Below, in pieces: positions 1,424-28,165 of a stretch of 32,000 nt of DNA (positions are counted from its first letter, which is position 1; each line of letters starts with the position of its first letter). Origin of the DNA: Methanothermobacter thermautotrophicus str. Delta H (GTDB lineage: Archaea; Methanobacteriota; Methanobacteria; Methanobacteriales; Methanothermobacteraceae). The position numbers were made by a program, and so were the translations under genes. Below the pieces are notes generated by a model. It worked only from the letters and a program-made list of their open reading frames with translations. It was not told the DNA's origin and searched no databases. The DNA is taken from positions 210,001-242,000 of the forward strand of contig NC_000916.1 of NCBI RefSeq assembly GCF_000008645.1, read 5' to 3'.

Positions 1424-1810
1424 TCATTCAGTGAAATGCGCTCTGAAAATTTCCTTGAGGATCCCCCAGCAGAATTTGCATGCGGGTGTCTGGAGGAACC
1501 CTGCAACTCTAAAATCACTCTTATTAAACCTTTGAGATTCTGGCTCAATCACCTTTTTATTGTCTGAAAAAATGCCGAAGATGACCAGCAGGTAAGCTAT
1601 GATCCGGATTATTATAAGTGCCACCGCACCACTTGGGTATCCTGCCAGCTGGGCTAGATGTGATACTCCAAATAAGCCGAAGGCTATTCCGATGTAAAGG
1701 AGCAGCGGACTTTCAAGTTTCCTGAAGCCCAGGTATCCCATTACAAGGATTATCATGCAGAATATAAAATTAATGGTAAGCACAGGTTCCATGATAAATG
1801 CCATCTTCAA
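1424..1810 (-). CDS. small integral membrane protein, unknown function
   Basis: 128 aa with about 3-4 hydrophobic helices. A GGGGGTGAT Shine-Dalgarno-like sequence lies just upstream of ATG 1810. Confidence 0.55.
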   Translation of the reverse strand: MKMAFIMEPVLTINFIFCMIILVMGYLGFRKLESPLLLYIGIAFGLFGVSHLAQLAGYPSGAVALIIIRIIAYLLVIFGIFSDNKKVIEPESQRFNKSDFRVAGFLQTPACKFCWGILKEIFRAHFTE

Positions 1811-3709: not shown

Positions 3710-4210
3710 ATGAAGAAGATTTTATTTCTGGTTCTTGTGGCCGCAACGGTGCTTGTATAGGGTTGTGTGAGTGAGGAACCCCAGTATAAGAGTTTCTCTG
3801 AGGGAACACTGAACTTCACCTATCCTGCGGCATGGGAGACATTTAACCCTGAGAATGCCCAGAGTGCCTTCACAAAGGAACCCGGAATTTCAAAGGATGT
3901 TATAGTCTATGTGGGTAACAGCAGTCATGATTTTGCCGCTGCAAAGGTCACGGCACGATCAGGTTACTACCTCAAGGACGTCGAGACAGTAAAAAATCAG
4001 ATGGCTAAAAATGAGGGTGTTACATCTGCAGAGATACGCAGTATAGCGGGGCGTAACGCTGCAGTGGTAACAGCCACGGACTCAACAACGCGCACCACCT
4101 TCGTTTACCTGAAGCTCAGCAGGACCAGTGGCTATGCCTTCATGTATGAGGGCCCACTATCTGATACTGCAACCCTTGAGGCCATACTCAGCAGTGTCAG
4201 GATAACATAA
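3710..4210 (+). pseudogene. putative secreted lipoprotein interrupted by an in-frame TAG in the lipobox (or N-terminally truncated product starting at GTG 3767)
   Basis: A GGGAGGT SD at 3698-3704 is followed by ATG 3710, encoding MKKILFLVLVAATVLV-TAG(3758-3760)-GCVSEEPQYKS... in the same frame as track ORF 3767..4210. This is a classic signal peptide plus a lipobox Cys. Confidence 0.6.
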
Positions 4211-6920: not shown

Positions 6921-7847
6921 TCAGATCCCATTTTTTATTCCTCCAAAGTTCTGGAGGATTTCAATTTCTTCTTCAGATAGTTCAGGGACACCCTTTATGA
7001 TCACAGGTATTTCGCTGATTGGCTTTGCCCTTGTCACATCATTTTGGAGTTTCTGATATACAGCATCTATGGCCCAGCCATAGTTAAGGTCATCTGCTTC
7101 GGTGATCCAGAGGGTGTCGATGTCTGCGTTTCTCGCATTTTTTGTTTTCTCATCCCACATGCTGATGAATAACCTGTCTTCCTGTCTCCATGAGTATTCA
7201 GCATCACCGATTATACCCACAACCTCCTTTACACCATCCTCAAGGAACTTTGAGTGACCGCAGACGCGGCAGACCACGAACTGGCCCTCCCGGGTGTGGA
7301 TTTTCTTTGGTCTGAAGAGGTCCCTCCCGCATATCAGTGTCCCGTAATTATCCTTCAGGGGCCTCTGAGCCTTCTTCAGTTTCTCAATGGCCTTCCTGGT
7401 AGCTACCCTGACAGTTTCATGGGGGTCGTTGAGGGCTTCCCTCAGTGCATCAAGGACCACGGCGTCCCCTGTCTCTCCAAGGTAATCTGCGGCCCTGGCC
7501 CTCACCTCTGGATCAGAGGAGTCCCTGAGGTATCCAGTGATCTTTTTAATTACATCCCCGTATTCAGGGCTCTCAGGGTCAAGTCCGTCCCTCAAGCCAT
7601 TCAGGGCGATCATATCACCATTTATGGGCGGCACTGTTTTGGCGGAAGCATGGGTTCCGGGATGCTCCTGCTGATCAGGGGAGCCTGAAATACCTACCAA
7701 GAACAATAAGAGAACAATGATGGCTATCAGGGCCAGATAACCCCACACACCTATCCATGATATTATTAGATAGGATACAAAAAGGATTACAATCAGAAAT
7801 AGACAGCCAGCGCAGGTATCCTCTCCTTCCATAGACACCACCCTCAA
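6921..7847 (-). CDS. membrane-anchored HEAT-repeat protein with Zn-ribbon-like CxxC pair and unknown C-terminal domain
   Basis: 308 aa with two N-terminal TM helices. HEAT/PBS-lyase-type repeats are present (DPEVRARAADYLGETGDAVVLDALREALNDPHETVRVATRKAIEKL). These are followed by ICGRD...VCRVCGH. An alternative start is ATG 7832. Confidence 0.7.
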   Translation of the reverse strand: MRVVSMEGEDTCAGCLFLIVILFVSYLIISWIGVWGYLALIAIIVLLLFLVGISGSPDQQEHPGTHASAKTVPPINGDMIALNGLRDGLDPESPEYGDVIKKITGYLRDSSDPEVRARAADYLGETGDAVVLDALREALNDPHETVRVATRKAIEKLKKAQRPLKDNYGTLICGRDLFRPKKIHTREGQFVVCRVCGHSKFLEDGVKEVVGIIGDAEYSWRQEDRLFISMWDEKTKNARNADIDTLWITEADDLNYGWAIDAVYQKLQNDVTRAKPISEIPVIIKGVPELSEEEIEILQNFGGIKNGI

Positions 7848-7954: not shown

Positions 7955-8908
7955 GTGGTTCAGTTAATTTATGGTGATTCTATGAGTGGACTTAAATTCT
8001 CGCCGGTTGAGTTTGAAAGGGAGATTCAGGCAAGGGAGATGGCATTATCGGGTATAGCCAGTTCAAGGACCAGGATTGAGGGTCTGAAGTCGGAGATACT
8101 GAGAAACCTGGATGAAATTCCTGATGGGGCATGGAAGAGGTCTCCTGAAATTGCGGGGGTGAAATCCTGGATTAATGGGGCCACGGATGTATATATCGAC
8201 AGCACGATGAACAGCAACGAACTCCAGAAAATTGAGAGTGACCTCAAACGTACTGAGAAGATGGCCAGGGAACTGCTGGGGACCGTGGTCGATATAAAGG
8301 TTAAGGCCAGAAGGGAAAGGAGGGTCATGTTAAAACTTGAGAGTATCAATGCAGGATTTAATTGGAAAAAGGACCTTCTTGAGAAGTGGAAGTCTTCGGA
8401 TTCAGAGAGGTTCAGGGAGAAGATTGAGAGGGCCATGGAGGCCGTGAAAAGGGGGGACTTCAGCGGGGCCGAAACCAGGATTCCAGGTCTTGAAGATGAA
8501 CTGAGAGACCTCATCGAGGAAGCCGAGAAACTCGAATCAAACGACAGGATGCGCAGGCATGTTCTCTCTTCCGTTAAAGAGGTCGCTGAAAGGATGGGCT
8601 GGAAGGAAGTTTCAGAACCATACCTTGAGGATGATAAGGACCCATCCAGCCCCCTCATATATGAGCTGAAATCATATTCCGCGGGAAAGATGCGCTTTTC
8701 ACTTACCATGGACAGAATAGATGTTGAATCACCATTTTCAGCTGAAGATGGAGCCTGTTATGAACAGTTCGACAGATTCTCAGAGAAACTCCAGGAATAT
8801 GGTATCCGGACAAAATTCGAAGGGAACCAGGGAGGACCCAGGAATAAACCAGTCTTAAAGGAGAAGAAAGCAAAGAGGCTTCCAGAAAGTCGCATGAGAA
8901 GGATATGA
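7955..8908 (+). CDS. coiled-coil protein, unknown function (cluster gene 1)
   Basis: 317 aa, rich in charged and heptad-like helical sequence, with a small C-terminal mixed domain. An alternative start is ATG 7982, preceded by GGTGAT. I recognised no catalytic motif. Confidence 0.7.
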   Translation: MVQLIYGDSMSGLKFSPVEFEREIQAREMALSGIASSRTRIEGLKSEILRNLDEIPDGAWKRSPEIAGVKSWINGATDVYIDSTMNSNELQKIESDLKRTEKMARELLGTVVDIKVKARRERRVMLKLESINAGFNWKKDLLEKWKSSDSERFREKIERAMEAVKRGDFSGAETRIPGLEDELRDLIEEAEKLESNDRMRRHVLSSVKEVAERMGWKEVSEPYLEDDKDPSSPLIYELKSYSAGKMRFSLTMDRIDVESPFSAEDGACYEQFDRFSEKLQEYGIRTKFEGNQGGPRNKPVLKEKKAKRLPESRMRRI

Positions 8909-8923: not shown

Positions 8924-10774
8924 ATGGCAGTATGGCAGGATAACCTTAAAAGACTGCTGAATCAGAAAGAGGTACTCATAATCCACGGAAACATAAGGGA
9001 CACCGCATACCTCACCGAGGAAGGAAACCTCGTCAGGGGCCTCACAGACCTTATCAACAGGACCGGCAGGGAACTTGGATACGATAAGACAGTGAGCTGG
9101 GGTTCATTCTTTGACCATGAAGGGAGGGGCCACTCCCCCATGTGGTCACTTGAAAGGATCACACCACTCAATGGGGACCAGCCAGAGATAAGGGAAACCG
9201 AAAGCCAGGACAGAGTCAGTGACGTACTCCACAGATGGCTGGAGGACGAAATAACCTCCATTGATGAGAAAAAGATCTTTATTATAAATTACATCGACAA
9301 GATCACAGGCTACGCTCCAGATGGAATGTACTCTGAACCCACAGCAGAACTTGTGACGCTCATACAGAAGATAATAGAGAACATATCTGAAAACAACCGC
9401 CTCATAATGATCGCCCTCAGGGACACGATGATCCCGGTTGAGTACTATACGAACTCGCCCCGTGTAGCAGTGATGGAGATACCCCTCCCTGACAGAGCAG
9501 AGAGACACCTTTACTATTCCACAACACTGGCCTCAGCAAGCATCCCATCCGATCAGATAGACTTACTCTCCAACATCACAGAGGGCCTCTACATGAAGGA
9601 CCTCGAAAACATCCTCAGCGACGTCCTGGAAGAAATTGATGAGAACCAGGAAGTCTCCTCTTCAATGCTGAGAAAAATAGTTAACAGGTACCGTATAGGT
9701 ACCGAAGAGGATCCATGGAGCAGGATACCACTCACAGGGCCTCCAAAGGGGCTTCTGGACTCGGCAGAGAACTGGTTTCTGGAGAGGGTTGTCGGACAGG
9801 ATCATGCGGTCAGGGAGATAGTGAATGCAATAAAGAAGGCACGTTCAGGTGTCGTGGGCCTTTCATCGGGGGGACAGTCAAAACCAAAGGCAACGTTCTT
9901 CTTCGCAGGGCCTACAGGTGTTGGTAAAACATTCCTGGCCAAAAAACTGGCAGAGTACCTGTTTGATACGGAGGAAGCATTTTTAAGGTTTGACATGAGT
10001 GAATTCAAGGAAGAGCACACAGTATCAAAGCTCATAGGTTCTCCTCCAGGTTATGTTGGATATGAACAGGGAGGACAGCTCACCAACGCCATAAAGAACA
10101 GACCATTCTCGGTCATCCTCTTTGATGAGATCGAAAAGGCTCACCCCAAGATAATGGATATATTCCTTCAGATCCTTGATGATGGACGCCTCACAGACAG
10201 CAGGGGACAGACGGTCTTCTTCACAGAGAGCGTGATAATATTCACATCCAACATCGGGACCAGAACCGTGGACAGCAGGGGAAACACCACATCTGAACAG
10301 AGGAAACTTGATGAAATAATAAATGACAGCGATCTCTCTGACTCTGAAAGGGAGAGAAGGGTGAGGGAACACTTCACGCGCAGTGTTAGAGAGTTCTTCA
10401 TGCATGAGATATCAAGAAGAGAACTTCTTAACAGGATAGGCTCACATATAATAGCCTTCAACTACCTGAAAAAATCAGATTACCAGGTGAACATAATTGA
10501 AAACAAACTCAAGGACATTTCAGAGAACTTCCGCGACAAATTCGCAGGCAGGGGGCACCGGCTCCACCTCTCCGGGGAATTAACTGGATATTTCCTTGAG
10601 AAGTATGGAGATTCAATATCAGAGTTCGGGGGCAGAGGTCTTGTAAATGCCCTTGAAGATGAAATAGGGAACATAGTGGCTGACCAGCTGCTCCTTGCAG
10701 AGGAGAGGGGAATGTCAGATATAAATTTCGAAGTATATGTTGATGGGGATGTAATCAGATGCCGGAGATCATGA
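8924..10774 (+). CDS. tandem AAA+ ATPase: degenerate N-terminal AAA-like half + ClpA/ClpB D2-type active half with ClpB_D2-small-like C-terminus (cluster gene 2)
   Basis: Walker A GPTGVGKT is at 9908-9931 and Walker B VILFDEIEKA at ~10115-10141. Clp-D2 hallmarks are present: LRFDMSEFKEEHTVSKLIGSPPGYVGYEQGGQLT and DGRLTDSRGQTV..IIFTSN. The N-terminal half has HGNIRDT where a P-loop would sit, so there is no GK[ST]. Confidence 0.85.
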   Translation: MAVWQDNLKRLLNQKEVLIIHGNIRDTAYLTEEGNLVRGLTDLINRTGRELGYDKTVSWGSFFDHEGRGHSPMWSLERITPLNGDQPEIRETESQDRVSDVLHRWLEDEITSIDEKKIFIINYIDKITGYAPDGMYSEPTAELVTLIQKIIENISENNRLIMIALRDTMIPVEYYTNSPRVAVMEIPLPDRAERHLYYSTTLASASIPSDQIDLLSNITEGLYMKDLENILSDVLEEIDENQEVSSSMLRKIVNRYRIGTEEDPWSRIPLTGPPKGLLDSAENWFLERVVGQDHAVREIVNAIKKARSGVVGLSSGGQSKPKATFFFAGPTGVGKTFLAKKLAEYLFDTEEAFLRFDMSEFKEEHTVSKLIGSPPGYVGYEQGGQLTNAIKNRPFSVILFDEIEKAHPKIMDIFLQILDDGRLTDSRGQTVFFTESVIIFTSNIGTRTVDSRGNTTSEQRKLDEIINDSDLSDSERERRVREHFTRSVREFFMHEISRRELLNRIGSHIIAFNYLKKSDYQVNIIENKLKDISENFRDKFAGRGHRLHLSGELTGYFLEKYGDSISEFGGRGLVNALEDEIGNIVADQLLLAEERGMSDINFEVYVDGDVIRCRRS

Positions 10775-11826
10775 ACCTTTACTGTGAGGTGAACCTGACA
10801 ACGCCCCTGGTCCTTGTGCTTGAGCCATCACCGGTCCTCTGGGAGGATATAATGAAGGTTTCAGCTGAAGTTATCGATTCCTTCCCGGGGAGGGTTAACA
10901 GGGTCTACTTCCCTGGCCAGAGGGAACACGAAGCCATCAGAACCTCCGGGGACCTCCGGAGAGATGGTCCGCGATGTCTCAGCAGGGGCAGGAACAGACC
11001 CCTTCTAATAAACCCGGTCCTTGAGAAACTCAATGAGGAAAAATTCACAGGTATCATAATCCTTGTTTCATCACGGGTCCCCATTGATATTGAGGACTGG
11101 GAGGGTACGGATGTCCCTGAGAGGCTGGTCTTCATCAACATGGGTGATGGGGACATTGAAGGCCCCTACAGGGTTATCGGCAGATCAAACATCAACCTCC
11201 AGATAGCTCCCCTCCTAAACAATGAGCCTACCGAGGTTTTTGTTTCCGGTGATGGCTTTGTCCCGTTGCGTTACAGTGTTGAGCCATTCAGATCATCAGA
11301 GATAGTGTTCAGGGATGGGGACTTCCTCCTGAATATTGAACCATCATCTGAGCCTTTAAAAATCCACCTTGCAGCAATCTGTAAGGACAGAGTTCCAGAA
11401 CTCAATATAAGACGTCAGAGGGGGTCACTGACAGAGAGGGTAGGTTTTAAGGAGGAAAGGCCCTGGTTTGATCAGAAATGGAATAAGATCCCTGATGATC
11501 TGAGGGACATCATCAGATCCGCCACAGAGAAAAGGGACTTCAAATGCCCCAGCTGCGGTGAAAAACACGCCTTTGATACCATGACATGCCCCTCCGGGGA
11601 CCTGATTTTAAGGGGACTGCCCGCAGGCAGATGCATCCTCTTCAGGGGAGATGAATACATTTCACTGGCAGATGCCCATGCATATCCCCTGGAGGATGGG
11701 AAGATAATAACCGCGGAGGGTAAGATTTACCGTCTGAAGGATGATGGTGGATGGGAGTACCTGAAGGACGTGGAACCATACGAGAGGGTTGATGATGATC
11801 TATTCGCATTATTCTATAGTATTTGA
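10759..11826 (+). CDS. degenerate vWA-like domain protein with C-terminal Zn-ribbon (cluster gene 3)
   Basis: ATG 10771 overlaps the upstream stop as ATGA (10771-10774). The strand pattern LVLVLEPSPV...GRNRPLLINPVLEKL...GIIILVSSRVPID resembles a vWA fold with the MIDAS DxSxS replaced by EPSPV. A CPSCGEKHAFDTMTCPSGD Zn-ribbon follows. The domain call is by eye only. Confidence 0.6.
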   Translation: MPEIMNLYCEVNLTTPLVLVLEPSPVLWEDIMKVSAEVIDSFPGRVNRVYFPGQREHEAIRTSGDLRRDGPRCLSRGRNRPLLINPVLEKLNEEKFTGIIILVSSRVPIDIEDWEGTDVPERLVFINMGDGDIEGPYRVIGRSNINLQIAPLLNNEPTEVFVSGDGFVPLRYSVEPFRSSEIVFRDGDFLLNIEPSSEPLKIHLAAICKDRVPELNIRRQRGSLTERVGFKEERPWFDQKWNKIPDDLRDIIRSATEKRDFKCPSCGEKHAFDTMTCPSGDLILRGLPAGRCILFRGDEYISLADAHAYPLEDGKIITAEGKIYRLKDDGGWEYLKDVEPYERVDDDLFALFYSI

Positions 11827-12390
11827 TCGAACAGGATTTCCATTGATCCAGCTGGACAGCTGGGATCATTCCATCGGCCTGTTCCCTGTCAGCAAGTACC
11901 AGTTTGAACGTTTCCTTGTGGATGATGAGGGCTCTGACTACACCGATGAGTGGTACAGGGGGGTCCTGGAATTGAATCCCCGCAGGAGCTGAGGAACCCG
12001 GGTGATAGGGTATGGGAGTTATTCATCACGGGTCTGGATCTTGATGTTATTGAGGACTTCCTCGGCTACCTCGGACCTGAATACAGACTGCCCACCCTGG
12101 ATGAATGGAAGGCCCTTCTTGAACTATCTGAGGGTATAGCTGAAGTATCCCCTGCTCTTAAAATGATCTGCAATGGTAGATCCCCGGAGCCGGTTCTTCA
12201 CTGGCTGGAAGCCGGTCTCTGTCCCCTTATGAGGGAGGGAATTTTTGAGAGGATCCATGGAATTGAGAATAGGGTCGCTGGAAAACCCTTTCACAGTCTT
12301 CTCCCAAATACATGGGCCCCAGAAGAACTCAAGGAGGTTAAAATGGACATGGTTCAGGGCATGATTGGATTCAGGGTTGTAAGGGGATGA
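11789..12390 (+). pseudogene. minimal FGE-sulfatase (SUMF1/'FGS')-like domain protein, split by one frame break (cluster gene 4)
   Basis: Two collinear ORFs, 11789..11992 in frame 2 and 11950..12390 in frame 1. Together they carry PVSKYQFERFL, YRLPTLDEWKALLE (compare RLPTEAEWE) and the terminal IGFRVVRG, all typical FGE-sulfatase landmarks. The break lies between 11950 and 11992, near G6 (11958-11963) and C4 (11978-11981). Confidence 0.6.
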
Positions 12391-12510
12391 TGGTGGTGTG
12401 TCCGTGTGAATTCTGCAGTGGGTGCTGAATTATTTATGGGGGATGATGGTGTATCTCTACGTCCTGGTTTAGGAGGTACTGAATCTGTACTGGAATCATG
12501 GAGGTATATT

Positions 12511-13119
12511 ATGGGTAAACTGAGGGTTGGCAGGTTTCTTATATCCTCAAGGGTTAATGGTCCTGGAAGAAGGTTTGTCATATGGTTTCAGGGGTGTCCC
12601 ATCCGCTGCAGGGGGTGTCTGAATCCGGAGTTCCATGATGAGGATGGCGGCCATCTCATTGAAACTGCCCGGCTGGTTGATATGATCAGGGATCTCAGGG
12701 ATGAAATAGAGGGGGTGACCTTCACCGGTGGCGAACCCCTCGCCCAGGCCATGGAGCTGGTGAAGCTTGCCGGGGCTGTTAAGTCGATGGGCCTCACAGT
12801 GGTATGCTTCACAGGATATGAAATGGATGAAATCCTTAAAGGGAACATAGAGGGCGGGCTCGAGCTCCTTGAATTTGTAGATGTGCTCATAGACGGCCCT
12901 TACATTGAGGAAAAGAGTGCGCCGTTGCTCTGGCGTGGAAGCACAAATCAGGATGTTTATTTTCTTACAGAACGCTATGCTGAATTCAGGGACAGGGTGA
13001 TGGCCTGTTCTGAAATGGAAGCTGAACTCAAAGTAGGTGCAGATGGTGTTTACATGACCGGAATCTTTGATGTTGAATTCTGGGAGGAACTCAGAAGGAG
13101 GCTGGGTGATGGATCTTAG
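12511..13119 (+). CDS. NrdG/PflA-type radical-SAM activating-enzyme homologue (cluster gene 5)
   Basis: VNGPGRRFVIWFQGCPIRCRGCLNPE contains the Cx3Cx2C cluster at 12595-12618. FTGGEPL, CFTGYEMDEIL and VDVLIDGPYIEEKSAPLLWRGSTNQ are collinear with class III RNR activase NrdG. The probable start is ATG 12511 after GGAGGT; the track ORF starts at 12406. Confidence 0.85.
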   Translation: MGKLRVGRFLISSRVNGPGRRFVIWFQGCPIRCRGCLNPEFHDEDGGHLIETARLVDMIRDLRDEIEGVTFTGGEPLAQAMELVKLAGAVKSMGLTVVCFTGYEMDEILKGNIEGGLELLEFVDVLIDGPYIEEKSAPLLWRGSTNQDVYFLTERYAEFRDRVMACSEMEAELKVGADGVYMTGIFDVEFWEELRRRLGDGS

Positions 13120-14122
13120 ATGTCCCTACTGCCTGAATGAGACCAGACCTGAACTCAAACCGGGGATCGGCTACTGCTGCAGGGAATGTCAGGAGGCACT
13201 CCCAAAGGATTATGTTGACCCCCTTAACTCAAGGGCCAGGATAGGTCTTGTCGGATTCACGGGTCACGGAAAGACGGTTTATCTTACAAGCCTCTTTTAT
13301 ACCCTGAGGGTCCTTTCAAACAGGGATATATGGAGGAACTTCTCATGGCGCACCTGTGATGACCACACCCATAAAATAAAATATTCAGATGTCAGGAAAT
13401 TTGAAAACTCAAGGCTTCCAGCGAGCACACCTGAAAATTTTCCCAGACCCGCCCTCATACATCTGCAGAATGTTCCATCCATGGGTGACATCTTCCTCAG
13501 CTTCTATGATACGGCGGGAAGGGTTTATGAAAGCGCCGAAAAGATAACCGATATGGGAAGATTCGTTGCCCATGCCGACACGGTGTTCTTTCTCATAAGC
13601 CTCAGTGAGAGCGGCCTTGGTGAGTGTGATATGGGTGATGTGAGTTTTGAAATGGAGCGTCTCCTTGATATATACATAAGGGGGGTCTATGAGAAGATGC
13701 ATGTTGACCTTTCAGATAAGCAGGAAATGGTTGTGCTTCTGACAAAGGCCGATGAGATTGACATCCTCCCTGAGGACCTCCATAAATTTTTAAACGAATC
13801 TTCATGTAACTGGTGGATGAATGATGACCTGGAGGCCAGATTCAGTGCCCTTGATAACTATTCTGAGAGGATAAGGGAATGGCTGAGAAGTGAGGGCTGT
13901 GGAGGATTTGTTAATCTGGCTGAAAACAATTTTAAAGGTGTTAAGTATACACTGATCTCATCAACAGGTGCCAGTCCAGTGGGGGATACCCTGGTCACGA
14001 AACTTGAACCGGAGCACCCAAAGGGGGTCATCAATCCACTCGTCTTTGCAATGAGGAGCGCATGCTCCCGTGAATCAGCACAGGGTGTCAGGAGTTTTAT
14101 TGGCAAAATCAGGAGGAGGTAG
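13109..14122 (+). CDS. Zn-ribbon + TRAFAC-class P-loop GTPase (cluster gene 6)
   Basis: The N-terminus CPYC...CCRECQ is a Zn-ribbon. G1 GFTGHGKT is at 13253-13276, G3 DTAG at 13508-13519 and G4 TKAD at 13742-13753. The probable start is ATG 13109, 8 nt after GGAGG, overlapping the radical-SAM stop; the track start is 13067. Confidence 0.8.
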   Translation: MDLRCPYCLNETRPELKPGIGYCCRECQEALPKDYVDPLNSRARIGLVGFTGHGKTVYLTSLFYTLRVLSNRDIWRNFSWRTCDDHTHKIKYSDVRKFENSRLPASTPENFPRPALIHLQNVPSMGDIFLSFYDTAGRVYESAEKITDMGRFVAHADTVFFLISLSESGLGECDMGDVSFEMERLLDIYIRGVYEKMHVDLSDKQEMVVLLTKADEIDILPEDLHKFLNESSCNWWMNDDLEARFSALDNYSERIREWLRSEGCGGFVNLAENNFKGVKYTLISSTGASPVGDTLVTKLEPEHPKGVINPLVFAMRSACSRESAQGVRSFIGKIRRR

Positions 14123-15622
14123 GTGTTCATGGAAATATACCAGTTTGTATACACCAAGGTGCCACCTGAAGAATCTCCATGGAATATAAGGGATTTTCAC
14201 ACAGTCTTCTATCCTGTGGATCTTATTTCAAGGGAAGACCTTTATGAAATGGAGAGAATGATACACAAGCCACAGATAGATGGCTTTAGAGATAAATTAA
14301 CGGTTTTTTACAGGAAGATAGATGATATGGATTATCTTGCAATCCTTTACCTCACTGACCTTCCTGAGGAGAGGGATGTCTTTGGGAGGGGAGGCCTCTT
14401 CCTGTGCCATGGATTTTTATTCCCGCCTGAAATCTGGATGATGGCTCAAACACCCCTTGAACTCTTTGATATCGTGAAAGGCCATGTATTTAATGGGATC
14501 GAAGACCTTTTAAACTCAGGAATCGTTGACAGGAATAGCGGTAACATTGAGGCTATAGAGATTTCAGGTTATTCTCCCCCCGGGGATATGCGCCCCCCAC
14601 TGTCCGATGACCTTAAACTGAAGATAACATCATACCTTTTTAAGATGGCTTCAGGGATCAGGGACTGCCCACCTCTGCTTTTAGCCGGTGAACCCTCTGA
14701 TGTATCAGAACTGCTGGATGAGGTTCTCTTCTACATCCCGGATGAACTGAAGGTCAACCTTGGATGGGATTCAGCCTTTGATGGAGGCAGCCTCTACCAT
14801 TATCCCCTTAAAATACTCGGATTCCAGGAGGAAATGCCCTATGGAGGGAACCCTGTTTCTGTTGACCTGTATAACCGAACAGTTGATTGCCCGGGCGAAT
14901 CAGCAGGGCTTTTACATCCCGTTTCAACCTATGAGAGATGGCTGGAGAACTGTGATGAAAGAGTTTCAAGGGAGGATATCAATGCAGCCTACCGGCTGTC
15001 GCTCCTGGTTGATTCCATGGAGCCACCCTCCTCAGTTGAGGAGGTAATGCCCCAGCTGGAAAACTTTTCTTACATCAACAGGGACCCCATTGAGGGGCAG
15101 TTCAGGAGAAAATTCCATGAAGTCTTTGGCATGACCCTCACTGATCCTGATTTACCTCCGGCGACCATGCTGAAGTTCCTCATTGAGGGCGCATCATGTG
15201 ATTCCATGGCGGGTTTCATTGAGTCACTGGTTCTTGATGGTTATCTCACTGAGGAGGACATAAAACTTCCAGGGGAGGTCACAGAGAGGAGCAGGATTCT
15301 GATGACCATTCAGAGGTTATGGGATGGTGCTGATATCACTGACGAAATCATGGAATCTGATTCTGAAGAACGCCGCCATATATTCGCATATCTAATCGGA
15401 ACCGGACTTTTGATGAAAAATGAATCACTTAAAGACTTATTGAGGGATAATGAGGATTTTAACGCTTTACTGGAGGAGAGGGAGGATCTTTTTGATATTT
15501 TAAATAACTCTGGATTCTCTGTATCTGGAAGTGAGTCCGCAGATGATCCTGAAGATGGATCTGACATCATAAATCTGAATAAAGTGAAGATGGTAATATC
15601 AGGGTTATTCAGGAGGCACTGA
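14123..15622 (+). CDS. large unknown protein, possible GTPase-associated (GAP1-like) partner (cluster gene 7)
   Basis: 499 aa, abutting the GTPase stop (14120-14122) with an AGGAGGAGG SD; an ATG is at 14129. The N-terminal YQFVYTKV... and ...RDVFGRGGLFLCHGFLFP resemble my recollection of GAP1-N-type domains, but that family assignment is unverified. The C-terminus is acidic and helical. Confidence 0.7.
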   Translation: MFMEIYQFVYTKVPPEESPWNIRDFHTVFYPVDLISREDLYEMERMIHKPQIDGFRDKLTVFYRKIDDMDYLAILYLTDLPEERDVFGRGGLFLCHGFLFPPEIWMMAQTPLELFDIVKGHVFNGIEDLLNSGIVDRNSGNIEAIEISGYSPPGDMRPPLSDDLKLKITSYLFKMASGIRDCPPLLLAGEPSDVSELLDEVLFYIPDELKVNLGWDSAFDGGSLYHYPLKILGFQEEMPYGGNPVSVDLYNRTVDCPGESAGLLHPVSTYERWLENCDERVSREDINAAYRLSLLVDSMEPPSSVEEVMPQLENFSYINRDPIEGQFRRKFHEVFGMTLTDPDLPPATMLKFLIEGASCDSMAGFIESLVLDGYLTEEDIKLPGEVTERSRILMTIQRLWDGADITDEIMESDSEERRHIFAYLIGTGLLMKNESLKDLLRDNEDFNALLEEREDLFDILNNSGFSVSGSESADDPEDGSDIINLNKVKMVISGLFRRH

Positions 15623-17211: not shown

Positions 17212-18906
17212 GTGATTGAAATGGGCTCTGCAGCTTTATTAAGACCAGAATCCCTCGATGAAAAGATAACACTTTCAATGAGCATTTCTGTACTCACAAT
17301 ATCCGTCATGGCACTGATTCTATGGTTAACCGGGGCACTCCAGACACCCAAGGTTGGACCCTTCCTTGATAAGGACCCGACCATATTCATGAGCTTCATT
17401 CTCCTGGCCGCCGCCATACTCGCCCTGAAGGCTTCTAGGAAAGTAACATCCCTCGTTCTATCACTGATGGTCCTGGCCATCCAGTTCTCTGGAGGTAGCC
17501 AGCCCCTCCACCCTCAGGCATGGACAGTAACATCCATGATAATCATATCATACTCCACTGCAGTGATCCTTTTTTCAATTGAAAGATACTCGGCTGCCCA
17601 GATAATCAGTTACACTGCGGGTACAGTGGCATATGCACTGTTCCTATCAGAGATTACAGGGATTACGGAAACAGAGCCGCATTTCAGGGCATGCATAACC
17701 TCTGCTGCAATGATGGTGTTCCTGGCCATAGGTCTCCTCAGCACCCACCCATCCCATGGTGTTGTGGAGCCACTCTATTCAGGGAGGATCGGGGGCTACA
17801 CCGGGAGGATGCTGATACCCATCGTGATAGGGTCCCTGACCCTCACGTCATTCATAGTAATCAGCGGCAGCAGCCACATACCATTCTCTGCCGATGTCTT
17901 CCTGGCCACCCTGAACCTGGCACTTTTAATTGTAATAATAACATTCACAGCCTACAAACTCAACGTGGTGGATTATGAGAGAATAAAAAATCAGAGGAAA
18001 AGCCAGAGGATGTGGAGGTTCTTCAGGAATGTTGTGGATAACCTTGAGGAGGCGGTGGCGGTCCTGGACCGTAACGGGGAAGTCCTGCACAGCAACACCG
18101 CGATGAAGAACCTGGAACTGGACCTCAGGAGACTGTGGAGGGAAAACCTGGAGGGTAAGGATCTTCCACAGCCCATAGGAACCATCAGGTCAGGTGGGAG
18201 GTACTTCACGGGATGGGCCATACCCCTGGATGATGGTGGGATCATATCCCTGATGGATATAAGCGGGCTTGTGGAGGTACAGGAGGACCTGCGGTCATCC
18301 CTCAGGGAGAAGGAGGCGCTGCTGAGGGAACTTCAGCACAGGGTCAGGAACAACCTTCAGATAATCACAAGCCTCATAAACATCCAGCTTCAGGATGCAG
18401 ATGGCCCGGTAAAGGAGGCGCTCCTGGCTACCCAGACCAGGGTGAGGGCCATGACCATAATACAGGAGTCACTCTACAGCACTGATGGCTACAGCAGTGT
18501 ACACATCGAATCATGCATCTCCCGGATGACAGAGCACCTCAAATCCCTGCTGGGTGCACATGGTGTGGGATTCAATATCAGGGCTGACCTCAGACTCAAC
18601 CTTGAAACAGCAATGCCCCTCTGCCTCATGGTGAATGAGCTTGTGACAAATGCCATAAAACATGCATTCCCTGAGGGGAAGGGAGAGGTCCACATTGAGA
18701 TAGATGAGGGGGAATCGGGGTACCACATGCGCTTTGCAGATGATGGCATTGGGTTCAGTGGGGAGGGGGAAGGCACCGGCCTGAAACTTGTAAGGATCCT
18801 TGTGGAGCAGCTTGAGGGTGACCTGAAGATACTTGTAGATGAGGAGAAAGGGGGGACAGAGATACTGGTGCCCTTCAGGGAACTCCAGTACAGGGAGAGG
18901 ACCTAG
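17212..18906 (+). CDS. membrane sensor histidine kinase (multi-TM N-terminus, PAS-like linker, HisKA_2 + HATPase_c)
   Basis: H-box LLRELQHRVRNNLQIITSLINIQ, N-box NELVTNAIKHAF, DDGIGF and GTGLKLVRILVEQLEG. About 7-8 hydrophobic helices lie in the first 260 aa. The likely start is ATG 17221 after AAAGGTGAT. No response regulator is adjacent. Confidence 0.9.
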   Translation: MIEMGSAALLRPESLDEKITLSMSISVLTISVMALILWLTGALQTPKVGPFLDKDPTIFMSFILLAAAILALKASRKVTSLVLSLMVLAIQFSGGSQPLHPQAWTVTSMIIISYSTAVILFSIERYSAAQIISYTAGTVAYALFLSEITGITETEPHFRACITSAAMMVFLAIGLLSTHPSHGVVEPLYSGRIGGYTGRMLIPIVIGSLTLTSFIVISGSSHIPFSADVFLATLNLALLIVIITFTAYKLNVVDYERIKNQRKSQRMWRFFRNVVDNLEEAVAVLDRNGEVLHSNTAMKNLELDLRRLWRENLEGKDLPQPIGTIRSGGRYFTGWAIPLDDGGIISLMDISGLVEVQEDLRSSLREKEALLRELQHRVRNNLQIITSLINIQLQDADGPVKEALLATQTRVRAMTIIQESLYSTDGYSSVHIESCISRMTEHLKSLLGAHGVGFNIRADLRLNLETAMPLCLMVNELVTNAIKHAFPEGKGEVHIEIDEGESGYHMRFADDGIGFSGEGEGTGLKLVRILVEQLEGDLKILVDEEKGGTEILVPFRELQYRERT

Positions 18907-21024: not shown

Positions 21025-21144
21025 ATGGTTTACTGTCGTGAATGCGGGGAGCTTAATCGTGATGGGGCAAACTACTGTCTTAAATGTGGCAGCCCCTCAG
21101 GGGGAGTGAAGGGGAGGATACCAGGCCTCAACCGGCCCGGATGA
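21025..21144 (+). CDS. 39-aa zinc-ribbon mini-protein, or the N-terminal Zn-ribbon of the next gene separated by a frame break
   Basis: My translation is MVYCRECGELNRDGANYCLKCGSPSGGVKGRIPGLNRPG, with CxxC-x12-CxxC. Its TGA (21142-21144) overlaps ATG 21141 of the next ORF as ATGA. Confidence 0.5.
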   Translation: MVYCRECGELNRDGANYCLKCGSPSGGVKGRIPGLNRPG

Positions 21145-22343
21145 AGGCGGGTCCAAGGACCATAACACTCACGGCCAGTGACGACACTGAAAACCTGGGC
21201 AGACTGACCCCTGAGATCCTCAGGATGGACAATGAAACACTCATGAAATGCAACGATGAGATAAAGGAGCTCGTGAAGAAAAGGAGGATCAGAAGAGGCG
21301 ACTTTGAGGGGTCCATGGAGGAACTCATGGCTGAGATAAGATCAAGACTCGAGGCACTGAGTGGGGAGCTCAGGGCACTGAGTCCGCAGCTTCTAAGGGT
21401 CACGGTGGAGATCGACAGGAGTAAACCTGATGTGAAGATCACAACATCCCTGGATAAGGACCGCATGGAAGGCTACCTTGAGAAGATTAAGAGCAGGCAG
21501 CTCTCAGACCAGTCCCCGGCAGCCCCATCATGGAGGGACCTCTGCCCTGTCTGCAGGGAAGCACCATTAACACCATTCCCAAAAAGGAGGGTCCCTGGAA
21601 GGTCTAAGAGGAATATGCGCTGCAGTAACTGCGGCGCAGTCTTCATTTACAAGGGAAATGGGTACCTTCTCAGCAGGGTCTCAAACAGGAACACCAGGGC
21701 CTGGCGCCTGTACGGTGGGAAGACACTCACAGAGGAGGAATGGACCAGGATAGCAAATGGCGGAGTATCCAATGAACTCCAGAGGGAGATCCAGAGAAAG
21801 AGGGATATTGAAGAGAGAAGGAGGGACATTGAAGGATGGCTTAAAAGTGCAGCAGAGGGGAATGTCACATTCAGAGAGCCCCAAACTCCCATAATACTCA
21901 GGAAGAACGAGAGGGCGGTCCTCGTACTCCACAACATTGACCTCTACGAACCGAGGGCCGTTAGAAGGACTGCCGGCGGATACGGGGGCCCCACCATAAG
22001 GGTGTCAAAGAATCTCTCATTCAGGATGGGGGCCCTCAATGCCATAAGCGAATCCCGTGACGAACTCCGGAGGATAGACACCGGTACACTGACCCTGACG
22101 ACACGGAGGATGATATTCACAGGGACAAAGAGGACAACGAACATAGACCTCAGGAAGGTCCTAGCCATCCAGCCCTACACCAATGGCATAGCGGTCCAGA
22201 GGGAGAACAAGAAGAGAACTGAACACTTCCTCAACACGGAAAAAACACTGCTGAACATCACCCACTCCGGGAGGACCCACACAGTCCCCGCAGATGGTGC
22301 GGTGATGAAGGCGGTGATTGAGGGACTTATAAGGAAGCTCTGA
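21141..22343 (+). CDS. coiled-coil / internal Zn-ribbon / C-terminal bacterial-PH (YokE-like) domain protein
   Basis: The track ORF 21084..22343 has its frame opening at 21084, and ATG 21141 gives MKAGPRTITL... Motifs include CPVCREAP...CSNCGAVF. The C-terminal pattern IDTGTLTLTTRRMIFTGTKRTTNIDLRKVLAIQPYTNGIAVQ is typical of bPH-type domains (by eye). Confidence 0.65.
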   Translation: MKAGPRTITLTASDDTENLGRLTPEILRMDNETLMKCNDEIKELVKKRRIRRGDFEGSMEELMAEIRSRLEALSGELRALSPQLLRVTVEIDRSKPDVKITTSLDKDRMEGYLEKIKSRQLSDQSPAAPSWRDLCPVCREAPLTPFPKRRVPGRSKRNMRCSNCGAVFIYKGNGYLLSRVSNRNTRAWRLYGGKTLTEEEWTRIANGGVSNELQREIQRKRDIEERRRDIEGWLKSAAEGNVTFREPQTPIILRKNERAVLVLHNIDLYEPRAVRRTAGGYGGPTIRVSKNLSFRMGALNAISESRDELRRIDTGTLTLTTRRMIFTGTKRTTNIDLRKVLAIQPYTNGIAVQRENKKRTEHFLNTEKTLLNITHSGRTHTVPADGAVMKAVIEGLIRKL

Positions 22344-22372
22344 CCAAAAAATAACTCAGAGGAGAGAATAAC

Positions 22373-25007
22373 TTGAGAGGAACTCTAAAGAAGATTGGGG
22401 GGATAGAATTTGGTCTCATGTCCCCAGAGGATATCAGGAAGATATCCGTCGCCCAGATCGTCACCCCGGACACCTACAACGAGGACGGGTACCCCATAGA
22501 GAACGGACTCATGGATCCCAGGCTCGGTGTGATAGACCCCCGGTTCCGCTGCTGGACCTGCGGCGCAAGGGGAGGGGAGTGCCCGGGACACTTCGGGAGC
22601 ATAAACCTTGCAAGGCCGGTCATACACGTGGGATTCGCAGACACCATACACAAGATCCTGCGGTCAACCTGCAGAAAATGTGGGAGGGTCCTCCTCACCG
22701 GGACTGAAATCGAGGAATATATCAGAGGATACTTGAAGCCATGGAGAAAGAGGAAAACTTCACGCCACTGGTAAACAGGGTATACTCCCTTGCAAGGAGG
22801 GACAGGTGCCCCCACTGTGAGGAGGAACAGCAGGAGATCAAACTCGACAAGCCCGTCTCAATCGTCGAGGGAGACTACAAGCTCACACCCAGTGAGGTGA
22901 AGGAGCGTCTTGAGAGGATAAGCGATGACGACGCCCTCATCCTCGGTGTCAACCCCCAGGTTGCAAGGCCAGAATGGATGGTCCTGACAGTCCTCCCGGT
23001 CCCCCCGTAACGATGAGGCCCTCAATCACCCTCAAAAACGGTGAAAGGTCAGAGGACGACCTGACCCATAAACTGGTCGATATACTCAGGATAAACCAGC
23101 GCCTCAAGGAGAACATGGAGGCAGGGGCTCCCCAGCTGATCGTGGAGGACCTCTGGGAACTCCTGCAGTACCATGTGACCACCTACTTCGATAACGAGGC
23201 CTCTGGTGTAACCCCTGCAAGGCAACGATCTGGAAGGCAGCTGCTGACGTTAATGCAGCGCTTAAAGAGCAAAAAGGGGATGTTCAGCAGTGAACTTTCA
23301 AAAGGACGGTTTAGGGGCAACCTTTCAGGTAAGAGGGTTAACTTCTCTGCCCGTACTGTCATCTCCCCGGATCCCAACATCAGCATAAACGAGGTGGGTG
23401 TCCCTGAAATCATAGCCAGGGAGGTTACCGTACCGGTCTACGTCACAGAATGGAACATAGACCGTATGAGGGAGTACATAGAAAACGGGCCAGACGTCCA
23501 CCCGGGAGCCAACTACGTCATAAGACCCGACGGACGCAGGATAAGAATCTCCTCTAAAAACACGGAAACTGTCATTGAGAACCTGAAACCTGGATACGTG
23601 GTTGAGAGACACCTCAAGGATGGTGACATCGTACTGTTCAACCGTCAACCATCCCTCCACAGGATGTCCCTCATGGCCCACCGGGCCCGTGTACTGCCCT
23701 ACAAGACCTTCCGCCTCAACCTGTGTGTATGCCCACCCTACAACGCCGACTTTGACGGTGACGAGATGAATATTCATGTACTGCAAACAGAGGAGTCCAG
23801 GGCAGAGGCAAAAACCTTAATGCTCGTCCAAGAACACATGATATCCCCCAGATTCGGGGGGCCTATAATAGGTAGTATAAATGACCAGATATCTGGATTG
23901 TATCTCCTCACAAGAAAATTTGCAGAATTTGAAGAGGAAGAGGTATTCCAGCTACTTAGAAGCGCTGGAATTTCATTACCATCTAGAAGGGGCACTAAAT
24001 GGAGTGGTAAAGAAATATTTAGCCTGATACTCCCAGATGACCTCAGCATGACCTACAGGGCAGATGTATGCAGAAGATGTCAGGAATGCATCGAAGATGG
24101 ATGTGAATATGATGCATATGTAGTAATAGAAAATGGAAGGCTCGAATCAGGCGTTATTGACAAAAAAACATGCGGGGCATTTTCAGGTAGATTGCTGGGA
24201 CATATAATCAGGGAATATGGTACTGATGAGGCCCGTGAATTCTTGGAATCAGCCAGCAGGCTGGCCATAGCAGTACTCATGAGGACAGGGTTCACGACAA
24301 GTATCATGGACTTTGACGTGCCCGAAGAAGCTAGACAAATGATAGATTCAGTGCTTGGAATGGTTATGGATCGTGTGGAAGGGCTCACTGAGGACAAGGA
24401 GGATGGGAGAGTCGAACCAGTGCAAGTAATGAGTTCGGAGAAGAACTTTGAGATTACGATAATGAAGGTCCTGGCCGGGGCAAGGGAGAGGGGAGGGGAA
24501 ATAGCCAGGAAGTACCTTGGGGTGGATGGAAACCAGGGATATATGATAACCCGGACGGGTCTGAAGTGTTCATTGCTTAACTTCACCCAGATAACAGCCT
24601 GTTTGGGGCAGCAGTCCGTCAGGGGTGAGCGTATCAGCAGGGGATACGATAACAGGACACTCCCTCACTTCAGGAAGGGAGAGCTCGGGGCAAAGTCCCG
24701 GGGATTCGTACAATCAAGTTACAGGGAAGGTCTGGATCCCATTGAATTCTTCTTCCACGCCATGGGTGGAAGGGATGCCCTCGTGGATACAGCCGTCCGC
24801 ACAGCCCAGAGCGGTTACATGCAGAGGCGTCTCATAAACGCTCTCCAGGACCTCACAGTCGATGAGGATGGCAGGGTAAGGGATAGCTGCGGTAACGTGA
24901 TTCAGATACTCTACGGCGAGGACGGGGTAAGCCCCTGGAGGGGGAAAAATGGCGAAATAGTGGATCTGGAACAGCTGGTCTATGAGATCAGGAGAAAAAG
25001 CCCATGA
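22373..25007 (+). pseudogene. rpoA1: DNA-directed RNA polymerase subunit A' (Rpo1N) paralogue, split into three frames; orphan (no rpoH/rpoB/rpoA'' neighbours)
   Basis: Three collinear ORFs, 22373..22774 (frame 2), 22741..23010 (frame 1) and 22974..25007 (frame 3), together give a full-length A'. Landmarks are the Zn site [25 protein letters not shown]|[36 protein letters not shown] and catalytic NADFDGDEMN (23742-23771). The frame breaks are at ~22718-22740 (tatat) and at or next to C6 23001-23006. Confidence 0.9.
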
Positions 25008-27693: not shown

Positions 27694-28155
27694 TTAACCG
27701 GACGGCTGCATGCCCTGATCCTGTTCCTCATCATTCAATGAGTCAAGGATGGCTTTAATTTTCTCTGTAAACTCACGGAAGTCACTCAGGTGTTCCTGGA
27801 GTATTCTGAATGTTATACGGTCGTCTATCTTCCCGTACCGGCGCACCACGATATTCCTGAAGCCCCTCATGGCCTTTATCTTTTTGAATGTGTCCTCATC
27901 GATTATGCCTGATCTGAGGAGGTTCTCCAGGACCTCGCCATCGGAACCTGGCACGCCAAGGTTGAGGTCAGAGTTGAGGATTGAACATATGTCATAGACG
28001 TTTTCAACTGCAAATTCAAGTCTCTTATACATCCCGTCCCTTATGAGCCCAAGTTCTGAGAATTCACCGAAACTTTCAGGAAGGTTCTCCTCTATGAGTC
28101 CCACACTCTCCTCAATTTCGCGTATCTTGGTGAGTACAACGACCTTTCTGACCAT
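27694..28155 (-). CDS. hepT: HepT-like HEPN (DUF86) toxin with variant active-site motif
   Basis: The probable start is ATG 28155 (MVRKVVVL...) after GGGGGTGTGAG, 10 nt downstream of the MNT stop. The motif FRNIVVRRYGKIDD (27835-27858 encodes RNIVVRRY) aligns to the canonical RNxxxHxY with Arg in place of His. Confidence 0.75.
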   Translation of the reverse strand: MVRKVVVLTKIREIEESVGLIEENLPESFGEFSELGLIRDGMYKRLEFAVENVYDICSILNSDLNLGVPGSDGEVLENLLRSGIIDEDTFKKIKAMRGFRNIVVRRYGKIDDRITFRILQEHLSDFREFTEKIKAILDSLNDEEQDQGMQPSG

Positions 28156-28165
28156 CTCACACCCC

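Follow-up and report, generated by a model that had tools for sequence, protein, structure and literature searches.

To our knowledge, systems built around DO-GTPases and GAP1 proteins are known only from one computational survey. Both families were defined in that comparative-genomics survey of predicted conflict systems (Kaur, Burroughs, Iyer & Aravind, eLife 2020; PMC7159879), in which the themes of the GAP1-N2 systems are tubulin, HSP70/GrpE/DnaJ, and kinase/PP2C, and radical S-adenosylmethionine (rSAM) proteins are mentioned only for unrelated FtsH ternary systems. We analyzed a 32-kb stretch of the Methanothermobacter thermautotrophicus str. Delta H genome (NC_000916.1, positions 210,001 to 242,000; hereafter the window), in which an earlier note, made from the sequence alone, had picked out a unit of three genes encoding an rSAM protein resembling NrdG, the activase of class III ribonucleotide reductase, a GTPase with an N-terminal Zn ribbon, and a 499-aa protein. 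This trio is real, but it is the 3′ end of an eight-gene unit (6921-15622), seven genes on the plus strand and one transcribed divergently (Table 1), and five further conserved genes had been missed. These encode a ClpB-like AAA+ ATPase, a coiled-coil protein (CC317), a von Willebrand factor A (vWA)-like protein (p355), an FGE-sulfatase-like (FGS) domain protein (p203), and a HEAT-repeat protein with a C-terminal domain termed C120. We read the locus as a horizontally mobile conflict system of the DO-GTPase2/GAP1-N2 kind, centred on nucleoside triphosphatases (NTPases) and most likely antiviral, and hold this reading with evenly balanced confidence. The accessory set of the cassette is undescribed for such systems. 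Literature searches found no paper describing an rSAM-GTPase-GAP1 combination, in keeping with the note's statement that no pairing of such a GTPase module with an NrdG-like enzyme had been described.

The cassette resembles the GTPase-centric GAP1-N2 systems in its TRAFAC GTPase with an N-terminal Zn ribbon, in the GAP1 directly downstream and the fusions found in relatives, in a mobile neighbourhood rich in vWA and FGS proteins, and in having one membrane-anchored component; its chaperone-type ATPase parallels their HSP70/GrpE/DnaJ theme. It differs in having no FNIII-repeat protein, one GTPase rather than a pair, and an archaeal host. FNIII gave no match in any window open reading frame (ORF) scanned, and the recurrent extra component is instead a protein ending in C120. 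The rSAM, ClpB-D2-like, coiled-coil, vWA/Zn-knuckle and C120 proteins lie outside the three published GAP1-N2 themes. The AAA+/vWA ternary systems (MoxR-vWA) also pair an AAA+ ATPase with vWA and FGS or HEAT-type modules, but the cassette ATPase is of the ClpB-D2 type, not MoxR. Among the candidate systems of PADLOC-DB v2, the models PDC-M37B (E 4e-32) and DolB (E 1e-21) are matched by the ClpB-like ATPase only; the other six cassette proteins scanned match nothing specific, the rSAM protein giving only generic pVip matches, and the HEAT protein lay outside the scan.

The GTPase, its GAP1-like partner and the rSAM protein

All the motifs that had been quoted for the rSAM protein, the GTPase and the 499-aa protein, and the positions of their genes, were found in the translations. 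The GTPase carries the CPYC...CCRECQ ribbon and the motifs G1 (GFTGHGKT), G3 (DTAG), G4 (TKAD), and G5 (SSTGA). Among 34 homologues the ribbon (CPxC...CxxC) is nearly invariant, and G1 (GxxGHGKT), G3 (D(T)xG), G4 (T/S)KxD, and G5 (S(A/S)xG) are invariant or nearly so. The ATG at 13109 in its ORF matches the start of the homologue P0013 (337 aa, 99% identical) and overlaps the rSAM stop codon by 11 nt. The profile check that the earlier note had proposed gave a Pfam DO-GTPase2 (PF19993) score of 25.3 bits against a cut-off of 27 (E 1.4e-5), and most of 106 homologues, P0013 included, have a precomputed PF19993 match; on these profile matches we assign the window GTPase to the DO-GTPase2 family. 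The Walker-B-adjacent Glu of the published DO-GTPases is Arg in the window subclade: the window sequence reads DTAGR, members of its closest subclade show R, A, S, or T at this position, and distant homologues DTAGE. The subclade has a conserved Glu three residues later (DTAGRVYE; window GTPase residues 147-155), and the catalytic residue may have been shifted along. No solved relative of the GTPase was found, and the family was found neither on IMG/VR viral contigs nor on PLSDB plasmids.

The 499-aa protein starts one base after the GTPase stop codon, with homologues beginning at its second Met (14129). Neither it nor 11 close homologues gave a direct GAP1 match in Pfam, NCBIfam, and PADLOC scans, and a word-indexed search with it returned 12 clusters only. 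A profile of those clusters (A1) was searched against 1.84 billion representatives and matched 300 proteins at E≤1e-3, the distant ones among them carrying Pfam GAP1-N2 (PF20013) at the N-terminus (P0241, 37.8 bits against a cut-off of 24). When A1 was compared by hhalign with an alignment of GAP1-N2 proteins (A7), the two aligned over 430 columns with a probability of 100% (E 1e-41), and both profiles contain the motif D..GR.G...H. The homology thus extends beyond the N domain, and no Pfam match to GAP1-M or GAP1-C was obtained in the 499-aa protein or the distant relatives scanned. Natural fusions of the GTPase with the GAP1-like protein occur (P0119, P0139, L008), and the GAP1-like gene occupies another place in the cassette in some loci. 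An AlphaFold2 (AF2) model of the 499-aa protein (predicted local distance difference test, pLDDT, 81; predicted template modelling score, pTM, 0.75) matched nothing in the PDB at E≤0.001 by Foldseek; its weak top matches, DENND10, FNIP2, and GATOR1, are eukaryotic GTPase regulators and give only a hint of a longin/DENN-like regulator. Profile comparison identifies the 499-aa protein as a divergent N2-type GAP1. The resemblance to GAP1-N domains suggested in the earlier note is therefore real, and no known unrelated family was matched in the Pfam, NCBIfam, and PADLOC scans.

The rSAM protein contains RVNGPGRRFVIWFQGCPIRCRGC (CX3CX2C), NGPGRR, TGGEPL, FTGYEMDE, and LIDGPY...LLWRGSTNQ, and its Pfam matches are Fer4_12 (E 5.8e-35) and Radical_SAM (E 3.8e-10). 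Its start codon is also the start in the syntenic locus L047. The hallmarks of a glycyl-radical activase are present: the CX3CX2C motif, the GGEP motif for S-adenosylmethionine (SAM), a Gly-rich N-terminal (D/N)GxGxR loop, and a predicted fold like that of the pyruvate formate-lyase (PFL) activating enzyme (PFL-AE). PFL-AE is both the closest solved sequence (3c8f, E 5e-8) and the top Foldseek match of the AF2 model (pLDDT 92; E 3e-8, 28-30% identity). With NrdG (TIGR02491) and PFL-AE (PDB 3c8f/3cb8) it thus shares a small partial-barrel rSAM fold and the motifs NGPGxR, CX3CX2C, GGEP, and WRGSxNQ. It differs from them in that it scores below the NrdG cut-off (115.8 bits against 126.1, although NrdG is its best NCBIfam model), has an extra C-terminal extension of ~50 aa (a β-hairpin and a helix), and is coupled to a GTPase or to AAA+ ATPases with no adjacent NrdD or PFL.

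A search with the window rSAM protein returned about 120 close homologues of ~200 aa, and profile scans took in metagenomic and viral contigs. Canonical NrdGs match the rSAM profile only to about residue 150 and adjoin NrdD genes ending in RRITGY, whereas in long-form proteins the match continues through the C-terminal extension. We built a neighbour-joining tree (no bootstrap) of 154 non-identical rSAM and NrdG sequences, in which the smallest clade to include all 21 GTPase-linked rSAM proteins comprises 58 members. All 44 NrdD-adjacent NrdGs lie outside this clade, and none of its 58 members adjoins nrdD. The clade keeps the NrdG motifs NGPGxR, GGEP, and WRGSxNQ, and nearly every position conserved in NrdD-linked NrdGs. 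On this tree, the window protein is of NrdG type, as had been proposed, and is not the activase of a class III ribonucleotide reductase. The Joint Genome Institute (JGI) pipelines often label its homologues as anaerobic ribonucleotide reductase activase, probably wrongly so for about 58 of the 154 sampled sequences.

These results bear directly on the simplest alternative, in which the rSAM protein is a housekeeping NrdG serving an nrdD outside the window and its neighbours are coincidental. That NrdG is the best-scoring named family, and that the JGI label points the same way, speaks for it. Against it stand the score below the NrdG cut-off, the adjacency to the GTPase in 23 loci of unrelated lineages, and a clade that is never NrdD-linked. 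A one-genome-per-species scan with a peptide pattern that the window GTPase matches found no Methanothermobacter locus, and few contigs carry the 499-aa protein. So sporadic a distribution would not be expected of an essential gene, and we regard a housekeeping role as highly improbable.

The earlier note had also stated that no glycyl-radical enzyme is encoded in the 32 kb, and this held. Pfam scans of all large window ORFs found no NrdD or PFL domain, and a hidden Markov model (HMM) of NrdD, built from 20 NrdG-adjacent NrdD genes, had no window match at E≤10. A motif scan for RxxG[YF] gave three window matches, in a histidine kinase, in a predicted membrane ORF ending in RVAGF, and in an ORF with no family match (Table 1), all of which we take as chance. 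The second of these, of 128 aa, recalls GrcA, but its sequence suggests a three-helix membrane protein, it has no Gly_radical match, and it was rejected. Three other candidate radical sites were considered and set aside. The sequence FGRGG.F.CHGF of the 499-aa protein contains the general GAP1-N2 motif D..GR.G...H; because this motif is present in relatives gathered regardless of rSAM linkage, and the Cys is not conserved, it was discarded. The C-terminus GFRVV of the FGE-like protein resembles an RVxGF site, but the FGE-sulfatase family match was confirmed and GFRVV is the usual C-terminal signature of that fold. Finally, the Zn ribbon of the GTPase or of p355 might mimic the Zn-ribbon-plus-Gly loop of NrdD, but neither ribbon has a conserved Gly after it, and ribbons are common in DO-GTPases generally (PMC7159879).

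A related possibility is that the rSAM protein keeps NrdG-like specificity and that its target is a host or viral NrdD or PFL encoded elsewhere, serving as a sensor bait or as a means of sabotaging deoxynucleoside triphosphate supply. The core sequence aligns almost collinearly with NrdD-linked NrdGs and conserves the same positions, and NrdD-NrdG pairs are common on viral contigs. We nevertheless consider it improbable, given the lack of nrdD next to any clade member, the score below the NrdG equivalog cut-off, and the occurrence of the clade on plasmids of aerobes; moreover, it leaves no role for the tight rSAM-GTPase coupling, the ClpB-like ATPase, or CC317.

Conservation and mobility of the cassette

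We scanned one genome per species with the GTPase profile, which gave 41 loci, and then searched their ORFs with an HMM of each window protein. In the 23 loci holding both genes (about 20 non-redundant), the rSAM gene is in every case directly upstream of the GTPase gene on the same strand, at a spacing of -53 to +51 nt. All seven plus-strand genes co-occur, in shuffled order, in Ca. Kryptonium, in Gammaproteobacteria including Methylococcales, in Acidobacteriota, and in Thermodesulfobacteriota; the seven-gene set is also found in Aminicenantes, Verrucomicrobiota, and syntenic Methanothermobacter contigs, and most of it in Armatimonadota and Planctomycetota loci. The gene set recurs in at least 10 bacterial lineages, and the co-occurrence of the GTPase and the 499-aa protein with rSAM genes, on which the earlier note had made its proposal depend, is kept across many of them. 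In Ca. Kryptonium, the ClpB-like ATPase and proteins of 348, 203, and 311 aa precede the trio, and HEAT proteins flank the locus. The cassette is sporadically distributed, and one copy is adjacent to a transposase. The genes around the cassette vary from host to host, with no conserved client enzyme adjoining it. The ClpB-like proteins of Methanothermobacter and Kryptonium are 66% identical, and by this measure the cassette appears to have moved across domains.

Related systems without the rSAM gene share a core of Zn-ribbon GTPase, GAP1-like protein, and C120-ending protein, usually accompanied by an FGE-sulfatase-like ligand-binding protein. In sister GTPase-GAP1-like loci of Bacteroidota, the closest ones that lack the rSAM gene, two caspase-domain proteins replace the rSAM set, together with a 2285-aa polymorphic toxin containing eCIS-core, TNT, and YwqJ-deaminase domains (L025, 5554-19994; L013).

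The C120 domain is the C-terminal domain of the HEAT protein (~120-140 aa, residues ~166-308); it contains a CxxC motif and has no Pfam match. Searches with phmmer and jackhmmer found it in most GTPase-GAP1-like loci, where it ends proteins that differ in their N-terminal parts, and the Bacteroidia locus L013 (13052-19153) holds five tandem C120 paralogues. The recurrence of C120 on otherwise variable proteins suggests an adaptor, and the HEAT-C120 protein is probably the eighth component of the cassette, with an adaptor-like role; its gene keeps a syntenic position in L047 and L004. The N-terminus of CC317 (MSGxK[YF]S) is invariant and is followed by a long coiled coil, a C-terminal α/β domain, and an acidic KGExxLP tail; the PDB profile matches of CC317 are to coiled coils only. 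In alignments, Gly235 and Cys259 of the C-terminal domain are invariant, and this domain also occurs in loci that combine a ClpB-like ATPase and an rSAM protein without the GTPase.

The ClpB-like ATPase keeps the Walker A (GPTGVGKT) and Walker B (LFDEIE) motifs and the pore-loop motif GSPPGYVGYEQGG (GYVG pore loop). It matches Pfam AAA_2 (E 5e-54) and, well below the cut-off, the ClpB model TIGR03346 (E 3e-80); its N-terminal 280 aa have no Pfam match. The p355 gene overlaps the ClpB-like gene by 16 nt. Residues C263, C266, H270, and C277 of p355 are invariant, and its MIDAS-type LDASES motif (DxSxS) is kept in distant orthologues and degenerate in the window copy; its best PDB profile matches are vWA domains, at non-significant E-values (0.16-0.25). 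The assignment of p203 draws on its homologues, which scored 24.3 bits (L036; cut-off 23.3) and 16.3 bits (L004) with the Pfam FGE-sulfatase model. FGE-like homologues are found fused to bDLD1, a bacterial death-like domain, or to a protein kinase.

The rSAM clade also extends to loci that lack the GTPase, where it is most consistently found with the ClpB-like ATPase and the CC317 domain, with the ClpB-like gene preceded by one for a CC317-type protein. The triad of rSAM protein, ClpB-like ATPase, and CC317 C-terminal domain thus persists without the GTPase, and in locus L073 and on a Moellerella wisconsensis plasmid it also includes a PIN nuclease gene. On this conjugative plasmid, pW18-2-a (L201, NZ_CP093250.1, ~178.8-188.8 kb), the genes for a CC317-like protein, a ClpB-like ATPase, and a long-form rSAM protein are accompanied by those for a large AAA protein and a protein with a PIN domain, near ArdA and an integrase; the module was not found in E. 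coli genomes. Other clade members are partnered with IetA-like AAA+ ATPases and a small conserved protein, some with WD40 proteins. We considered whether the CC317 C-terminal domain is homologous to this small protein, and the comparison gave no support (hhalign probability 8%). On plasmids of Bacillus cereus (L199) and Paenarthrobacter (L200), the set of clade rSAM protein, AAA ATPase, and small conserved protein is joined by a helix-hairpin-helix protein and DUF2997. In cyanobacteria, the ferredoxin gene fed7 clusters with a DUF2997-DUF1257 pair (PMC4284462), and by analogy this link hints at an electron-supply role. Further clade neighbours are an NB-ARC-TPR protein and superfamily 1 (SF1) helicases, and plasmids of the aerobes Paenarthrobacter, Rhodococcus, and Bacillus cereus carry clade members. 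The rSAM protein is a recurrent module of NTPase-centred systems. An NrdG-derived clade has in this way been recruited repeatedly outside ribonucleotide reduction, by DO-GTPase, ClpB-like, IetA-like AAA+, and NB-ARC systems. Since the rSAM protein is linked to the ClpB-like ATPase and CC317 without the GTPase, it may be part of a portable rSAM/unfoldase module and not an effector that stands alone.

A proposed mechanism and its alternatives

The earlier note had envisaged a GTPase switch with an adaptor that controls an rSAM effector. The linkage behind this idea is conserved, but both the control and the effector role are steps that we infer. In the mechanism that we propose, the FGE-like, vWA, and HEAT-C120 proteins would bind an invader-derived cue, which the GAP1-like protein would pass to the GTPase. 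The nucleotide state of the GTPase would license the rSAM protein, whose gene is always immediately upstream and often overlapping. The ClpB-like unfoldase would present a polypeptide loop in extended form, and the rSAM protein would cleave SAM reductively to give a 5′-deoxyadenosyl radical that abstracts a hydrogen atom. The protein radical would then lead to an irreversible change (cleavage, cross-linking, or activation), and the infected cell would be arrested.

The glycine-rich NGPGxR loop contacts the peptide substrate in PFL-AE, and the Gly loop of that substrate must be exposed for activation. Together with the threading ATPase as a constant neighbour, this makes a polypeptide the leading guess for the substrate. 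Four observations point to a protein substrate: the NrdG motifs are kept, PFL-AE is the nearest structure, the ATPase has a GYVG pore loop, and the triad occurs without the GTPase. If the conflict-system reading is right, we put the chance that the rSAM protein acts on a polypeptide loop at about one in two. The best candidate is, as a guess from the alignments, the CC317 C-terminal domain with its invariant Gly and Cys. In its fullest form the proposal would be a protein-radical immunity: an NrdG-derived activase, gated by the GTPase and GAP1 and fed by the unfoldase, would put a glycyl-like backbone radical on CC317, setting off an irreversible cleavage, cross-linking, or assembly step by which infection is aborted, and the module would be portable to PIN-nuclease, IetA-like AAA+, and NB-ARC systems in bacteria, archaea, and plasmids. 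Taken as a whole, we think this version unlikely to be correct.

Several points weigh against the conflict-system reading and its protein-substrate form. The description of DO-GTPase/GAP1 loci as conflict systems is itself a published prediction (PMC7159879). The clade was defined in a neighbour-joining tree without bootstrap, with context labels from our own ORF calls and HMMs. In Pfam and motif scans, neither a Gly_radical domain nor an RVxG[FYW] motif was found in any cassette protein, and the invariant Gly of CC317, at a β-turn predicted from the sequence, may be purely structural. CC317 occurs only with the ClpB-like ATPase, while a different small protein accompanies the IetA-like AAA+ ATPases; since no single partner protein is present in all the contexts of the rSAM clade, a universal small-molecule substrate would be simpler. 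A stable glycyl radical would not survive in the aerobes whose plasmids carry the clade, and the PIN nuclease of the GTPase-less relatives means that the rSAM protein need not be the killing effector. The lack of a glycyl-radical signature and of a universal partner, and the aerobe plasmids, favour transient radical chemistry or a small-molecule substrate, to which we give about half the weight of the protein-substrate reading. The state of the window copy also counts here: its FGE-like gene is frameshifted, and this copy of the cassette may therefore be inactive.

The main alternative keeps the same conflict system and has the rSAM protein act on a small molecule in a viperin-like manner, the substrate being an NTP, GTP from the adjacent GTPase, or SAM, and the output a chain-terminating or signalling nucleotide or SAM depletion. 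A universal substrate suits a protein found in DO-GTPase, ClpB-like, IetA-like AAA+, NB-ARC, and helicase contexts with no single protein partner. The viperin C-terminal extension binds nucleotide, and the rSAM clade has a C-terminal extension of its own; QueE, a small-molecule enzyme, is the second-closest fold (E 2e-4), and the clade occurs in aerobes. On the other side, the core motifs common to NrdD-linked NrdGs are kept, the NGPGxR loop included, no nucleotide-binding motif is evident in the extension, and the NCBIfam models for viperin (NF038283, 16.4 bits against a 180-bit cut-off) and QueE (27.7 bits against 300) score far below threshold. Viperins appeared in the fold search at non-significant E-values of 0.01-0.1, and the PADLOC pVip match (E 1e-4) covers the generic rSAM core only. 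The analogy with viperins that the earlier note had drawn therefore found no support in sequence. The cassette resembles the prokaryotic viperins (pVips) in placing an rSAM enzyme in a predicted immune context and in the idea of a radical-made antiviral product, but it has no specific sequence relationship to them, and pVips are single-gene or kinase-linked whereas the cassette is an eight-gene, NTPase-regulated unit. A small-molecule substrate strikes us as possible, though doubtful.

A different kind of alternative holds that the locus is not a conflict system at all but serves to mature or repair a metallo- or radical cofactor, as do HydF-HydE/HydG or AAA+/vWA pairs of the chelatase type (CoxD/CoxE). 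AAA+ ATPases, vWA proteins, GTPases, and rSAM enzymes each occur in cofactor-assembly pathways, and the cassette combines all four; HydF, which is a GTPase, with the rSAM enzymes HydE and HydG in [FeFe]-hydrogenase maturation is a precedent for a GTPase physically working with rSAM enzymes. No toxin-like domain was recognisable in the window cassette by Pfam, NCBIfam, and PADLOC scans. The HydF, HydE, and HydG families are unrelated to those of the cassette, however, and there is no hydrogenase context; HydE ranks 23rd in the rSAM fold search (E 0.04). No client enzyme is conserved next to the cassette, and its flanks vary between hosts. Its sporadic distribution suggests horizontal transfer; transposases are found beside it, and the GTPase-less Moellerella relative lies near ArdA and an integrase. 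Caspases, polymorphic toxins, death-like domains, and PIN nucleases all occur in sister systems, and the GTPase and GAP1 families have so far been found only in predicted conflict neighbourhoods (PMC7159879). On this balance we consider a cofactor machine quite unlikely.

The rSAM protein would add an assayable chemistry (SAM cleavage, electron paramagnetic resonance, mass spectrometry) to the DO-GTPase/GAP1 family, and the whole family would thereby become testable. With proteins as its substrates, it would be an activase of the glycyl-radical type that operates outside metabolism; with nucleotides as its substrates, viperin-like chemistry would have arisen a second time, independently of viperins. 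Cultivable starting points are available in Moellerella wisconsensis, Bacillus cereus, Paenibacillus polymyxa, and Paenarthrobacter, whose plasmids carry relatives.

State of the window copy and neighbouring genes

The features of the cassette and of its surroundings are collected in Table 1. The window as a whole also encodes an F420-dependent sulfite reductase, a geranylgeranyl reductase, proteins with pseudomurein-binding repeats (PMBR), and an archaeal RNA polymerase A'. A sigma-70 promoter model, which is bacterial, was uninformative for this archaeal sequence.

Table 1. Positions of the cassette genes and of other features in the 32-kb window.
Feature	Position	Strand	Basis or remark
Predicted membrane ORF ending in RVAGF (RxxG[YF] match)	1424..1810	-	Motif scan
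ORF with RxxG[YF] match	3767..4210		Motif scan; no family match
Membrane-anchored HEAT-repeat protein with C-terminal C120 domain	6921..7847	-	Pfam HEAT_2 only
Coiled-coil protein CC317	7982..8908 (ORF opens 7955)	+	No Pfam family
ClpB-D2-like AAA+ ATPase	8924..10774	+	Pfam AAA_2
vWA-like protein with CxxC...H...C zinc knuckle, p355	10759..11826	+	Orthologue alignment
FGE-sulfatase-like (FGS) domain protein, p203	11789..12390, two frames (11789-11992, 11950-12390)	+	Homologue Pfam scores
Intergenic stretch with ~108-nt insertion	12391..12510	+	DNA alignment to L047
NrdG-derived rSAM protein, glycyl-radical-activase type	12511..13119	+	Pfam, NCBIfam, model, clade analysis
Zn-ribbon GTPase assigned to the DO-GTPase2 family	13109..14122 (ORF opens 13067)	+	Motifs, Pfam, homologues
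Predicted divergent GAP1, N2 type, 499 aa	14123..15622	+	Profile search, profile-profile comparison
Two paralogous small predicted membrane proteins, 169 and 148 aa	15689..16682	-	No family match
Histidine kinase (RxxG[YF] match)	17212..18906		Motif scan
RNA polymerase A' (Rpb1)-like gene and preceding ORF	21084..25007 (frames 22373-22774, 22741-23010, 22974-25007)		Two frameshifts
HepT-like (HEPN) ribonuclease	27694..28362	-	
NurA-HerA pair	28704..31182		

In a DNA alignment, the two frames of p203 in the window are separated by a single-base gap, a 1-nt deletion near 11991, and the gene is unbroken elsewhere (203 aa in L004, 198 aa in L047). The split could reflect either a pseudogene or an assembly error. 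Between the p203 and rSAM genes, the same kind of alignment revealed the ~108-nt insertion, which is absent from the syntenic locus L047 and holds a direct repeat of GGGGATGATGGTG; the tight gene spacing of L047 is thereby lost in the window. The RNA polymerase A'-like gene is also broken by frameshifts, and the indels of the cassette may for this reason be assembly errors rather than decay.

The RNA polymerase A'-like gene itself, preceded by an unknown 419-aa ORF, has no rpoB context and sits where the syntenic L047 has a β-helix/PMBR protein. Either the gene is a paralogue that has diverged and decayed, or it points to assembly indel errors. Directly downstream of the cassette lie the genes for the two small paralogous proteins, both of which begin MSSD(V)DDGKTGR..GWWS.RS; L047 has two ORFs similar to them in size and position. 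About 12 kb downstream of the cassette are the HepT-like gene, which suggests a toxin-antitoxin system, and the NurA-HerA pair.

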